A stretch of 64,000 nt of DNA from Escherichia phage wV7. Position numbers and translations under genes: made by a program. The stretch lies in the sequence record NC_019505.1; one strand, 5' to 3'. The notes below the pieces were generated by a model. The model did not search any database. It saw nothing but the letters and a program-made list of their open reading frames with translations, and was not told where the DNA came from. Shown piece after piece: positions 3,494 through 7,740 of this stretch (position 1 is its first letter; each line of letters begins with the position of its first letter).

Positions 3494-3772
3494 TCAAAAT
3501 GTAATTTCTAACCAATCACCATCACGCTGATCACTATTGACTTTAAAATTAAATCCTTCTTTTCTCAGCCAATCACCAATTTCTTCAGTAATCAATTTAT
3601 CACGAGCAGTACAATAATAACTAAAATATGTTTTACCTTGTTCAGCTGCTTTATTAGCAAGTTCTGAAAAATCTTTAATAAAACACTCTAGCTTAAACTG
3701 TTTACTTTTTAATGCTTTTTCACGTAATTGATTAGCAAAAGATTCATTTTCATAAAGATCATACTGTTCCAT
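3494..3772 (-). CDS. Hypothetical early protein (24.2 position)
   Basis: 92 aa ORF in the T4 24.2 position; no recognisable motif. Confidence 0.55.
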   Translation of the reverse strand: MEQYDLYENESFANQLREKALKSKQFKLECFIKDFSELANKAAEQGKTYFSYYCTARDKLITEEIGDWLRKEGFNFKVNSDQRDGDWLEITF

Positions 3773-3974
3773 TTTTCACCTTTTTATTAATGTGTCTTTT
3801 TCTATAGACAACTTTTTCTCGAGTCTCAAATTTATTCTTTGCAGTCATAGCTCGAGCCCATAATACAGCCACTTCTTTCGCCTGTAAGTTTAATTCACGA
3901 GCAATTTCAATGAATGACTTTCCAGACTCATGAAGTGTAAACACCACAACTTCAGTTCTCATAATCAATCTCAT
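3759..3974 (-). CDS. Small helix-turn-helix-like protein (24.3 position)
   Basis: 71 aa; segment GKSFIEIARELNLQAKEVAVLWARAM resembles an HTH. Confidence 0.5.
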   Translation of the reverse strand: MRLIMRTEVVVFTLHESGKSFIEIARELNLQAKEVAVLWARAMTAKNKFETREKVVYRKRHINKKVKNGTV

Positions 3975-4043
3975 GTTATCGAGTTGGTGCCATTATATAC
4001 ATCATTTTCTGATTGTGTTTTGTGTGCTTTCAAAATGAAGAAA

Positions 4044-4060
4044 GGGGCCGAAGCCCCTTT
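4044..4060 (-). terminator. Hairpin GGGGC-CGAA-GCCCC 3' of hoc
   Basis: Perfect stem and tetraloop followed by a U-run on the minus strand. Confidence 0.65.
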
Positions 4061-4063
4061 CGA

Positions 4064-5488
4064 TTATGGATAAGTATAGATGATACCAGTTTCTAAAGCA
4101 GTTTTATGGATGATGTATCCATTACGTGATTCTTGAACATCAACTTCTGAATAATCTTTCATCATCTTCTGAAGCGTATAACGATGCAAGTAGTACTTAC
4201 TATCTGGATCTTCAGTTTTCCAATCTTTACCTTCTTCAGTCATTTTTTGGATTTCATCCATAACCCACCAACCGCACCAGATATAAGCTGAAGTACGATG
4301 TGGAAGAGGATGAACATAAGGCAATTCACCTTCTGGTTCCGGAGCAACTTTATCAGTTACCTGAACTTGACCTGTTGTTTTAACTGTTTTACTATCATAG
4401 TCGGTTGCTGTAACGACAGCAGTAACTTCAATAGTTTGACTTCCAATAGATGAGGTGTCAACGGTGTATACGTTAGTTGACCCTTCTACAGGAGAAGAAT
4501 CTTTCTTCCATGAATAAGTAATTTGTGCTGCTTCAGGTGCTCCAGTAACATTAGCCGTAAATGTAGCCGAAGCATCTTGCTGAACGTTAATAGAAGGAGG
4601 AGTCAATGTAACCTGTGGATTCATTGTCTTCTTATTAACTGTCAATGATACTTCATTAGAAGTAACTTCCTTTTCATTGTAATTTTCTGCAGTTACTTGC
4701 GCTACACATTTAATTCTTTTTACTCCACTTGTAGTTGGAGTATAGTTAAATGTAGAGTTAGTTTCTCCACCAATTTGAGAATCATCTACATACCACTTAT
4801 ATGTAGCAGACGCTCCATCAGGTTGAGAAGCTAAGGCAGCAGTAAATTGAACTGGAGTTCCAATTACTCCAGCTGAAGGACTATTAGGAGTTACAACTAA
4901 AGTAGTCGCTTGGGTTTTCTTGTTAACAGTCAGCGACACTTCGTCAGAAGTAACGGTCTTTGTATCATAATCTGTCGCAGTTACTTGAGCTACACACTTA
5001 ATTTTTTTAACTCCGCTTGTGGCAGGAGTATAGTTAAATGTAGCGTCAGTTGCTTCTCCCACAGGAGAACCGTCGACGTGCCATTGATACGTAGCAGATG
5101 CACCTGGCGGCTGTGAATCTAAGGCAGCGGTAAATTGAACAGCTGTTCCGATTACTCCTTCCGAAGGACTATCAGGAGTTACTGTTATTGTAGTAGTCTG
5201 TGTCTTATTTTGAACTGTGATAGTTGTCGTAGCTTCTGCTGTTTCAGGTTCAGATTCAGATTCTGGAACTGTATTTGTTGCAACGACTTTAATAGTCTTT
5301 TGACCGGCAGGTCCTTTTAGTACATAACTAAAAGTTGCTTCAGCTCCATCCTGTGGAACATTATCTACACTCCAAGCATAGGTAATAGTTCCACCTTCAG
5401 TTTGACCACTGGGTGCAGCAGTAAACTGCTTGGTTTCATCAATAACTCCTGTTGGGGTTTTAGGAGTTATATCAACTGTAAAAGTCAT
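4064..5488 (-). CDS. hoc: Highly immunogenic outer capsid protein Hoc, 474 aa with four Ig-like domains
   Basis: N-terminus MTFTVDITPKTPTGVIDETKQF and C-terminus ...IHKTALETGIIYTYP as recalled for T4 Hoc; internal tandem Ig-like repeats. Confidence 0.9.
   Translation of the reverse strand: MTFTVDITPKTPTGVIDETKQFTAAPSGQTEGGTITYAWSVDNVPQDGAEATFSYVLKGPAGQKTIKVVATNTVPESESEPETAEATTTITVQNKTQTTTITVTPDSPSEGVIGTAVQFTAALDSQPPGASATYQWHVDGSPVGEATDATFNYTPATSGVKKIKCVAQVTATDYDTKTVTSDEVSLTVNKKTQATTLVVTPNSPSAGVIGTPVQFTAALASQPDGASATYKWYVDDSQIGGETNSTFNYTPTTSGVKRIKCVAQVTAENYNEKEVTSNEVSLTVNKKTMNPQVTLTPPSINVQQDASATFTANVTGAPEAAQITYSWKKDSSPVEGSTNVYTVDTSSIGSQTIEVTAVVTATDYDSKTVKTTGQVQVTDKVAPEPEGELPYVHPLPHRTSAYIWCGWWVMDEIQKMTEEGKDWKTEDPDSKYYLHRYTLQKMMKDYSEVDVQESRNGYIIHKTALETGIIYTYP
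4643..5182 (-). repeat. Tandem in-frame duplication (~270 nt each) encoding two near-identical Hoc Ig-like domains
   Basis: Protein segments TPDSPSEGVIGTAVQFTAALDSQPPGASATYQWHVDG... and TPNSPSAGVIGTPVQFTAALASQPDGASATYKWYVDD... are near-identical; matching DNA around 4630-4770 and 4920-5060. Confidence 0.8.
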
Positions 5489-5497
5489 AAGTTATCC

Positions 5498-6178
5498 TTA
5501 TTTTAATGTTACGAAAGAAGAATTGCGTGTTTCACGAATTAGAACTGATCCGTCACGATTAATGTAGTAAATTAAGCTAAACAAAGTTTGATGCGCAGAC
5601 GCATGTTCAAAACTGGTTGGGCGAGATTTCCAATCTGGAGTTTCAGCAATCCATTGGTAAATCCACCAAGGAACAGTGCAGAATCCTGGATTTTTTCCAA
5701 TCAGCTGAAGATTCGGGCTAAAGTTTTCCGGAAGAGTAAATACAGACGGCTTTTCAGATTCAATAATCTTATCTACAGCTTGTTCAAACTTTTCTTCAAC
5801 AAAAGGAGTGTCTTCAATCAAAACATCAGTATTTTCAGGAATTTTATCCGTTTCTACCACTTCAATTTTAATATCAGATTTAACTGGAGAATCAATCAGA
5901 AGTGCTGCTTCTGGATTAACTTCTTCATCGTCATATTTTAATCCCTCTGCAGCATCAGCAGCATCAATTAAGTCTTTAATAGATAACCCATCAGTCTCTG
6001 GCATAGGTTCACTAGCGAGCTTCTGGAGGGCTTCTTCAATATCAACAACGATATTATCAAAAGATTTATTCTTTTTGACCTTTATACCAAATTGCTCAGC
6101 ATATTCAGCTAATTTAGCTTTAGCTTCTTTATTATCATCAAGAGCCTTTAACTCTGCAATATAATCTTTATCTATCAT
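5498..6178 (-). CDS. inh: Inh, inhibitor of prohead protease (head protein)
   Basis: 226 aa, located between hoc and uvsW as in T4. Confidence 0.8.
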   Translation of the reverse strand: MIDKDYIAELKALDDNKEAKAKLAEYAEQFGIKVKKNKSFDNIVVDIEEALQKLASEPMPETDGLSIKDLIDAADAAEGLKYDDEEVNPEAALLIDSPVKSDIKIEVVETDKIPENTDVLIEDTPFVEEKFEQAVDKIIESEKPSVFTLPENFSPNLQLIGKNPGFCTVPWWIYQWIAETPDWKSRPTSFEHASAHQTLFSLIYYINRDGSVLIRETRNSSFVTLK

Positions 6179-6191
6179 AATATTTCCTCAG

Positions 6192-6199
6192 TATAAATA
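6192..6199 (+). promoter_or_regulatory. Late promoter TATAAATA upstream of uvsW
   Basis: Exact motif about 30 nt upstream of the uvsW ATG. Confidence 0.6.
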
Positions 6200-6228
6200 T
6201 AGATATATTTATTACATGGTATTTAGAC

Positions 6229-7740
6229 ATGACTGACATTAAAGTACATTTTTATGATTTTAGTCACGTGAGAATTGATTGTGAAGAAAGTACATTTCAT
6301 GAACTCCGTGATTTCTTTAGCTTCGAAGCTGATGGGTATCGTTTTAATCCGAAATACAAATATGGCCACTGGGATGGACGAATCCGTCTTTTAGATTATA
6401 ATCGTCTTCTTCCATTCGGCTTAGTCGGGCAAATTAAAAAGTTCTGTGATAACTTTGGCTATAAAGCCTGGATTGACCCACAAATTAACGAAAAAGAAGA
6501 ATTATCAAGAAAAGATTTTGATGAATGGCTTTCTAAATTAGAAATCTATTCAGGAAATAAAAGAATTGAACCACACTGGTATCAAAAAGATGCAGTGTTC
6601 GAAGGATTAGTTAATCGTCGTAGAATTCTTAATCTTCCAACATCCGCTGGTAAATCTTTAATTCAGGCTCTGCTCGCTCGGTATTATTTGGAAAATTACG
6701 AAGGTAAAATTCTTATCATTGTTCCAACAACTGCTCTAACAACTCAGATGGCTGATGACTTCGTTGACTATCGTTTATTCAGTCATGCAATGATAAAGAA
6801 AATTGGTGGCGGAGCATCAAAAGATGATAAATATAAAAATGATGCACCAGTCGTTGTTGGTACATGGCAAACTGTAGTTAAACAACCAAAAGAATGGTTC
6901 TCACAGTTTGGAATGATGATGAATGATGAATGTCATCTTGCTACAGGAAAAAGTATTTCATCTATCATATCAGGTTTAAATAACTGCATGTTCAAATTTG
7001 GTCTATCTGGTTCATTACGTGATGGCAAAGCCAATATCATGCAGTATGTTGGAATGTTTGGTGAAATATTTAAGCCAGTAACGACTTCTAAGTTAATGGA
7101 AGATGGACAAGTAACTGAGCTAAAAATTAATAGTATTTTTCTTCGCTATCCCGATGAGTTCACTACTAAATTAAAGGGAAAAACTTATCAAGAAGAAATA
7201 AAAATTATTACGGGGCTTAGTAAAAGAAATAAATGGATCGCTAAATTAGCTATTAAGCTTGCGCAAAAAGATGAAAACGCTTTTGTCATGTTTAAACATG
7301 TATCACATGGTAAAGCTATTTTCGATTTAATTAAAAATGAATACGATAAAGTTTATTACGTATCAGGGGAAGTTGATACCGAAACCCGCAATATAATGAA
7401 AACCTTAGCTGAAAATGGTAAAGGAATAATTATAGTAGCTAGTTATGGTGTATTTTCTACTGGTATTTCAGTTAAAAATCTGCATCACGTTGTTTTAGCG
7501 CACGGTGTTAAATCAAAAATCATTGTATTACAAACAATCGGTCGTGTATTACGTAAGCATGGTTCTAAGACAATAGCAACAGTCTGGGACCTCATAGATG
7601 ATTGTGGTGTTAAGCCAAAATCTGCTAATACGAAAAAGAAATATGTTCATTTGAACTATCTTTTAAAACACGGCATTGATCGTATTCAGCGCTACGCAGA
7701 TGAAAAATTTAATTACGTAATGAAAACAGTTAATTTATAA
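6229..7740 (+). CDS. uvsW: UvsW DNA/RNA helicase (SF2), 503 aa
   Basis: Walker A-like TSAGKS, DECH box (MMMNDECHLATG), Q-type motif; size and position as T4 uvsW. Confidence 0.92.
   Translation: MTDIKVHFYDFSHVRIDCEESTFHELRDFFSFEADGYRFNPKYKYGHWDGRIRLLDYNRLLPFGLVGQIKKFCDNFGYKAWIDPQINEKEELSRKDFDEWLSKLEIYSGNKRIEPHWYQKDAVFEGLVNRRRILNLPTSAGKSLIQALLARYYLENYEGKILIIVPTTALTTQMADDFVDYRLFSHAMIKKIGGGASKDDKYKNDAPVVVGTWQTVVKQPKEWFSQFGMMMNDECHLATGKSISSIISGLNNCMFKFGLSGSLRDGKANIMQYVGMFGEIFKPVTTSKLMEDGQVTELKINSIFLRYPDEFTTKLKGKTYQEEIKIITGLSKRNKWIAKLAIKLAQKDENAFVMFKHVSHGKAIFDLIKNEYDKVYYVSGEVDTETRNIMKTLAENGKGIIIVASYGVFSTGISVKNLHHVVLAHGVKSKIIVLQTIGRVLRKHGSKTIATVWDLIDDCGVKPKSANTKKKYVHLNYLLKHGIDRIQRYADEKFNYVMKTVNL

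Follow-up and report, generated by a model that had tools for sequence, protein, structure and literature searches.

The hoc gene of Escherichia phage wV7 is longer than its T4 counterpart, which raises the question of what the additional sequence encodes, how old it is and whether the length of the gene differs among related phages. The locus was studied within a stretch of 64,000 nt from sequence record NC_019505.1 (the window). The original prediction, made from this sequence, was that a recent in-frame tandem duplication has provided Hoc with a fourth immunoglobulin (Ig)-like domain.

The identity of the gene is supported by several comparisons. It is 100% identical to the gene of a 'PKD domain protein' in E. 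coli O157 typing phage 7 (KP869105.1), and hoc of phage AR1 shows 99.6% identity to it. A phmmer search of the PDB sequences retrieves the T4 Hoc chains 5vf3/8t1x with E = 3.5e-216. The ORF order rnlB, 24.2, 24.3, hoc, inh, uvsW matches the T4 annotation, which places the gene between inh and 24.3/24.2/rnlB, the position of hoc in T4. Domain 1 has 97% amino acid identity to T4 across aa 1-73, and the last 93 residues are 97% identical to T4 Hoc 284-376. Residues 291-358, within the last Ig-like domain, match Pfam Ig_3 and I-set. The features of the gene are collected in Table 1.

Table 1. Features of the hoc locus in the window (positions are those of the window; residues are those of the window Hoc).
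Feature	Position	Strand	Basis
hoc coding sequence, 474 aa + stop codon	4064..5488	(-)	ORF list
Ig-like domain 1, aa 1-95, fibre distal tip	5204..5488	(-)	HMM domain 1-95; AF2 beta-sandwich, pLDDT ~90
u2, aa 96-191, first copy of the 96-aa Ig module	4916..5203	(-)	Repeat, HMM, T4 alignment
u3, aa 192-287, second copy of the 96-aa Ig module	4628..4915	(-)	Repeat, T4 alignment
Last Ig-like domain, aa 288-381, orthologue of T4 domain 3	4346..4627	(-)	Alignment, HMM, AF2
C-terminal capsid-binding domain, aa 382-474	4067..4345	(-)	T4 alignment
Intrinsic-terminator-like hairpin GAAAGGGGCTTCGGCCCCTTTC + T-rich tail, directly after the hoc stop	4040..4061	(-)	Sequence

Several further observations concern the surroundings of the gene. 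In phage OE5505 a terminator is annotated at the place corresponding to the hairpin. Two antisense ORFs lie inside hoc on the opposite strand, at 4910-5116 (+) and 5135-5320 (+). The window contains 12 exact T4 late-promoter motifs (TATAAATA) vs 9 expected, which is no enrichment, and the minus strand has none immediately upstream of either inh or hoc; sigma-70-like matches inside hoc are at background (9 found vs 6.9 expected). The homing endonuclease gene segE sits between inh and uvsW in T4 (7058-7675 of the T4 locus, L001) and in ESh25 (144-761 of L002). It is absent from the window, where inh ends at 6178 and uvsW starts at 6229, leaving a gap of ~50 nt (6179-6228). The 24.3 homologue of the window (3759-3974 (-)) encodes 71 aa (216 nt); that of ESh25 also has 216 nt, and that of T4 encodes 56 aa (171 nt). 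In the databases hoc is found under the labels 'endonuclease', 'baseplate wedge subunit', 'capsid vertex protein', 'capsid whiskers protein' and 'capsid and scaffold protein', and in AR1 a hypothetical ORF, ar1_183, is annotated under the hoc match. Both the mixed labels and ar1_183 look like annotation noise.

A repeat search reveals a single direct tandem repeat, with copies of 288 nt at 4626-4913 and 4914-5201 that align without gaps at 75% identity. When phased to codons, its copies are the two adjacent, in-frame units u2 and u3. They share 217/288 nt (75.3%), and shuffled sequences reach 26.1% +/- 2.6% with a maximum of 35% (2000 shuffles). Thus the similarity goes beyond chance, and the clear DNA similarity of two consecutive segments that had been anticipated is confirmed over the whole 288 nt. 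The segments had been located at 4643-5182, with 4630-4770 compared to 4920-5060; these positions are right to within ~20 nt, but their offset of 290 should be 288. The description of the segments as nearly identical at protein level does not stand, since 71/96 residues (74%) are equal, without gaps, and the identity at third codon positions is 58%. The longest run common to u2 and u3 is 19 nt. Tandem Repeats Finder did not report the 288-nt pair, giving only a 6-nt microrepeat at 5243-5263.

Each of the two copies corresponds to one Ig-like module. A unit HMM recognizes four Ig-type units in the window Hoc, three in T4, two in KIT06 and five in UGKSEcP2 and CCU7. The Ig string is also detected by Pfam PKD (38.6 bits, cut-off 23.5) and Ig_3 (30.4 bits, cut-off 30). 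An AlphaFold2 (AF2) model built on 31 four-Ig homologues contains four beta-sandwich domains in residues 1-380 with pLDDT of ~90, and is poor for the C-terminal domain (pLDDT <60). The best PDB matches of Foldseek are four-Ig chains as well, namely Dscam1 Ig1-4, Sidekick Ig1-4 and ICAM-5 D1-D4.

Among the closest known relatives is T4 Hoc (5vf3, 8t1x), whose gene has the same position. T4 hoc comprises 1131 nt and 376 aa, and its alignment with the window gene has a single gap of exactly one 96-aa unit, the additional Ig module at aa 96-191; T4 aa 94-376 align with window aa 192-474, and the parts outside the gap show 87-97% protein identity. The ORF of 474 aa is thus one Ig-like domain longer than T4 Hoc, as had been proposed, and a T4 Hoc of ~474 aa with the same repeat, which would have made the window gene unremarkable, is not what is found. 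The unit without a T4 counterpart is u2, which bears a variable patch that we call A-type (HVDGSPVGEATDATF), and u3 bears a B-type patch (YVDDSQIGGETNSTF). The T4 middle domain is nearer to u3 (86% aa identity, dS 0.31) than to u2 (77%, dS 0.87). The in-frame tandem duplication of one Ig-like module, giving a fourth Ig-like domain relative to T4, is therefore supported by the T4 alignment, the unit HMM, the AF2 model and Foldseek.

The four-Ig form is not restricted to wV7. The gene is matched by 677 phage records, from a collection biased towards E. coli phages, and 60 evenly spaced ones were sampled. The four-Ig form (1419/1425 nt, matching in one piece) is found in 19 of them and the three-Ig form (1116-1134 nt, nearly all 1131, matching in two pieces) in 31, and the other 10 have a shorter, longer or partial hoc. 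A second set of 125 proteins adds the window Hoc and four fetched loci to the 120 top-ranking cluster representatives. Three Ig domains are present in 83 of these (375-378 aa), four in 31 (468-474 aa), five in 10 (567-570 aa) and two in a single protein (283 aa). Four-Ig Hoc is thus a common allele class in Tequatrovirus, carried by roughly a third of related phages, and this form sets wV7 apart from T4 but not from many other Tequatroviruses.

Some of the other forms deserve a separate description. A second kind of five-Ig protein, with 567 aa, occurs in CCU7 (L003 1501-3204) and in protein P0045. It has two strongly divergent extra units with HMM scores of 89 and 68, compared to >160 for the A, B and C types, which suggests a separate source for these modules. 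The two-Ig Hoc of KIT06 (L004 1501-2352; 283 aa) has the architecture of the published PhiPNJ-9 variant. Its middle unit joins the end of the last Ig domain directly (…SLTV|TDK…), as if a whole domain had been deleted at a short shared motif. In several UFV phage records hoc is split into pieces.

On a neighbour-joining tree of the flanking domains of 124 Hocs, Ig number requires at least 28 changes, compared to 37 for shuffled labels, whose minimum is 32. The flanks are thus poor predictors of copy number, and three-, four- and five-Ig genes are all observed among the nearest flank neighbours of the window. In particular, six hoc genes of 1137 nt (ESh25, OE5505, P0070, P0072, P0083 and P0096) have flanks 95-100% identical to the window and a single middle unit, which is of u2 type up to a junction and of u3 type after it. 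This pattern is contradicted at 0-2 of the 71 informative sites per gene. The junctions are at unit nt 21-31 (ESh25), 31-42 (P0096), 54-60 (OE5505), 75-86 (P0083), 160-180 (P0072) and 216-229 (P0070), each within a stretch of 5-19 nt common to u2 and u3. Six different junctions imply at least six collapse events. The head of the first copy is joined to the tail of the second in 10/10 proteins of 378 aa and the reverse is seen in 0/10, a polarity that would be expected of unequal crossover or slippage removing exactly 288 nt. A site of domain-number variation, as suggested originally, is hence recognized between phages by the two-, three-, four- and five-Ig forms and by these six independent collapses. 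No recent expansion product of a window-like gene is present among the ten five-Ig genes sampled.

Of the six chimeras, four were taken from metagenomic or draft assemblies, and the ESh25 record is flagged UNVERIFIED. Collapse by the assembler is nevertheless unlikely because the run common to u2 and u3 is at most 19 nt. The three-Ig hoc of OE5505 (L005 1001-2137) is interrupted by a stop codon and split into two annotated CDS, which might reflect a pseudogene or a sequencing error. The T4 middle domain (hoc at L001 5188-6318) combines a B-type C'-E patch with an A-type F-G loop (TATDYDALSV). Since the polarity of these patches is opposite to that of a simple deletion product, T4 Hoc is itself a mosaic.

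The two copies also differ in a regular way across the four-Ig Hocs (n = 31), where first and second copies are consistently distinguished at unit positions 47, 50, 51 and 54. The full A-type pattern in all four columns is found in 29/31 first copies and the full B-type pattern in 21/31 second copies. In 172 units, variability peaks at positions 45-54 and 77-83, which the AF2 model places in the C'-E and F-G loops, and it is chiefly in these predicted loops that u2 and u3 differ. From the strand order of Ig domains, these variable loops are probably CDR-like and ligand-facing, located at one end of the domain like CDR2 and CDR3 of an antibody. Among the three-Ig Hocs the A-type patch is carried by about 58/83 and the B-type patch by 17/83, T4 included.

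We consider it very likely that the window encodes a four-Ig capsid fibre with an old and widespread two-copy module, whose number shifts by unequal recombination or slippage and which would give the fibre extra length and a second patch. The T4-type C-terminal domain would plug into the centre of each major-capsid hexamer and bear the four Ig-like domains; binding of the window Hoc at this place is inferred because its anchor domain is 97% identical to that of T4. The Ig string would project outwards as in T4, and with the extra module the fibre would gain about the length of one Ig domain (roughly 4-5 nm). This module may also offer mucin glycans or cell surfaces a second patch to bind, one that differs in sequence. 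Among phages, module number is polymorphic with one to three closely related copies, and it would change when the copies recombine unequally through their homology or slip. At least six separate times, a four-Ig gene in the lineage of the window has turned into a three-Ig gene.

A more far-reaching version is conceivable, but we regard it as doubtful. The middle of hoc might be a recombination-driven cassette system with one to three modules of a few old types (A, B and C), in which modules would be gained, lost and hybridised all the time through unequal crossover, whether the infection is mixed or single. If this were true, it would tune the length of the fibre together with the range of ligands, glycan or surface, that the capsid can hold, and collapses and expansions should be detectable at low frequency in clonal lysates and selectable on mucus.

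The tandem arrangement might also be younger than its units. Two single-unit alleles, one of A type and one of B type, could have been joined by unequal crossover in a mixed infection. The two patches do occur as alternative alleles in three-Ig Hocs, and the closest neighbours of the window depart from it much more strongly in the middle units than in the flanks; the five-Ig protein P0001 has a flank distance of 0.018, yet its unit identity is only 73-82%. Base composition may hint in the same direction, at different histories of the units. The G+C content of u2 is 44.4% compared to 36.5% for u3, with GC3 of 28% and 15% (96 codons), and 36 of the 71 differing sites pair G or C in u2 with A or T in u3. 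However, these single-unit alleles may in turn derive from a two-copy ancestor by loss, as do the six chimeras in this lineage, and no pair of donors is identified. Such a joining event is unlikely in our opinion. A foreign origin of u2 was considered separately on account of its higher G+C and was rejected, the difference being within the range of other hoc segments.

The age of the copies was evaluated by the Nei-Gojobori method. Between u2 and u3, dN is 0.17 and dS is about 0.96, with 29 synonymous and 25 non-synonymous codon differences. The corresponding dS between window and T4 is 0.19 for domain 1 and 0.44 for both the last Ig domain and the C-terminal domain. Because the value for the two units exceeds these, the unit types split before the window phage and T4 did; dS dates this split and not necessarily the event of tandem placement. 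Both copies are under purifying selection, by which they are maintained, as the dN/dS of 0.17 indicates. The 71 differing sites, 38 transitions and 33 transversions, are spread over the whole unit; u2 has A at 21 of them, C at 21, G at 20 and T at 9.

These values weigh heavily against the claim that the duplication is recent, having occurred in this phage or its immediate ancestors. Units that are adjacent, in frame, of equal length and gapless would fit such an event. However, the divergence of u2 and u3 exceeds that between window and T4 anywhere else in the gene, and the first-copy and second-copy types recur in about 30 distinct clusters (90% identity) of four-Ig Hocs. By extrapolation from 19/60 of 677, some 200 phage records hold both types. 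Targeted hypermutation of young copies, which might simulate age, is argued against by transitions and transversions over all four bases. A recently duplicated or contingency locus should have near-identical copies, and here the identity is 75% at the nucleotide level with a longest run of 19 nt and the dS given above; it should also differ in copy number among close genomes, as the three-, four- and five-Ig genes and the six collapses do. In summary, the word 'recent' has to be dropped from the original prediction, and a duplication of such recent date is highly improbable. A target of a diversity-generating retroelement was also considered and is rejected, since the differences are not confined to adenines and involve all four bases. 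Finally, although tandem repeats are a classic source of misassembly and some of the comparison sequences are draft or metagenomic, a false duplication in the window or a false collapse in its relatives is hardly conceivable, because assemblers with longer k-mers (e.g. k=119, from the contig name of L010) should neither merge nor duplicate copies with 75% identity and a longest run of 19 nt, the identical 1425-nt gene is found in the independent records of typing phage 7, AR1, Sf21, PYps32T, REP2 and EPIMAM01, and the reading frame is kept in all forms.

Fokine et al. (2023) describe Hoc as a conserved capsid-binding anchor with a variable string of one to ten Ig-like domains (PMC10385173). 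In T4 the Hoc fibre is 180 A long, its C-terminal domain binds the centre of the gp23* hexamer with one monomer each, and the protein is dispensable for growth (PMC10385173). The Hoc Ig domains bind MUC2 and fucose (PMC11853027), and their number varies widely among T4-like phages (PMC13435897). By its description, the Hoc-like protein of Klebsiella phage PMBT63 is similar to that of the window; it has an additional fourth Ig-like domain after domain 1 compared to T4, and its global alignment with T4 Hoc spans 472 positions (PMC13435897, 2026). It differs in being only ~46% identical to T4 Hoc and in belonging to a different genus, and the same paper neither describes the extra domain as a tandem copy nor gives a recombination analysis (PMC13435897). 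The 'variant Hoc' of PhiPNJ-9, with two Ig domains in 283 aa, shows that Ig number varies among E. coli T4-like phages, and its middle module binds MUC2 (PMC11853027). In that protein the last Ig domain was lost, rather than the middle one gained. The Hoc of Serratia phage Muldoon likewise combines the conserved anchor with a variable string, here 10 Ig domains in 1174 aa (PMC10385173), but it is much larger and distant, whereas the window belongs to a polymorphism of one to three copies among near-identical genes.

That the number of Ig domains in Hoc varies is thus already published, as is a four-Ig Hoc-like protein, and the window sequence is already in GenBank. The window Hoc is an ordinary case of the known variable-Ig Hoc, and the discovery is modest. 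In the openly accessible literature we found no description of the one-to-three-copy polymorphism or of chimeric junctions in Tequatrovirus Hoc, and the recurrent loss of a module by unequal recombination is a clean and apparently undescribed example.

Hoc is the main display platform on T4 nanoparticles, and for engineers the locus carries a warning, namely that recombination can remove tandem Ig modules from hoc. Hoc also underlies the 'bacteriophage adherence to mucus' model. Close relatives that differ by a clean deletion of one module are ready-made, nearly isogenic sets, with which the relation of fibre length and module type to mucus binding and to phage persistence can be addressed.
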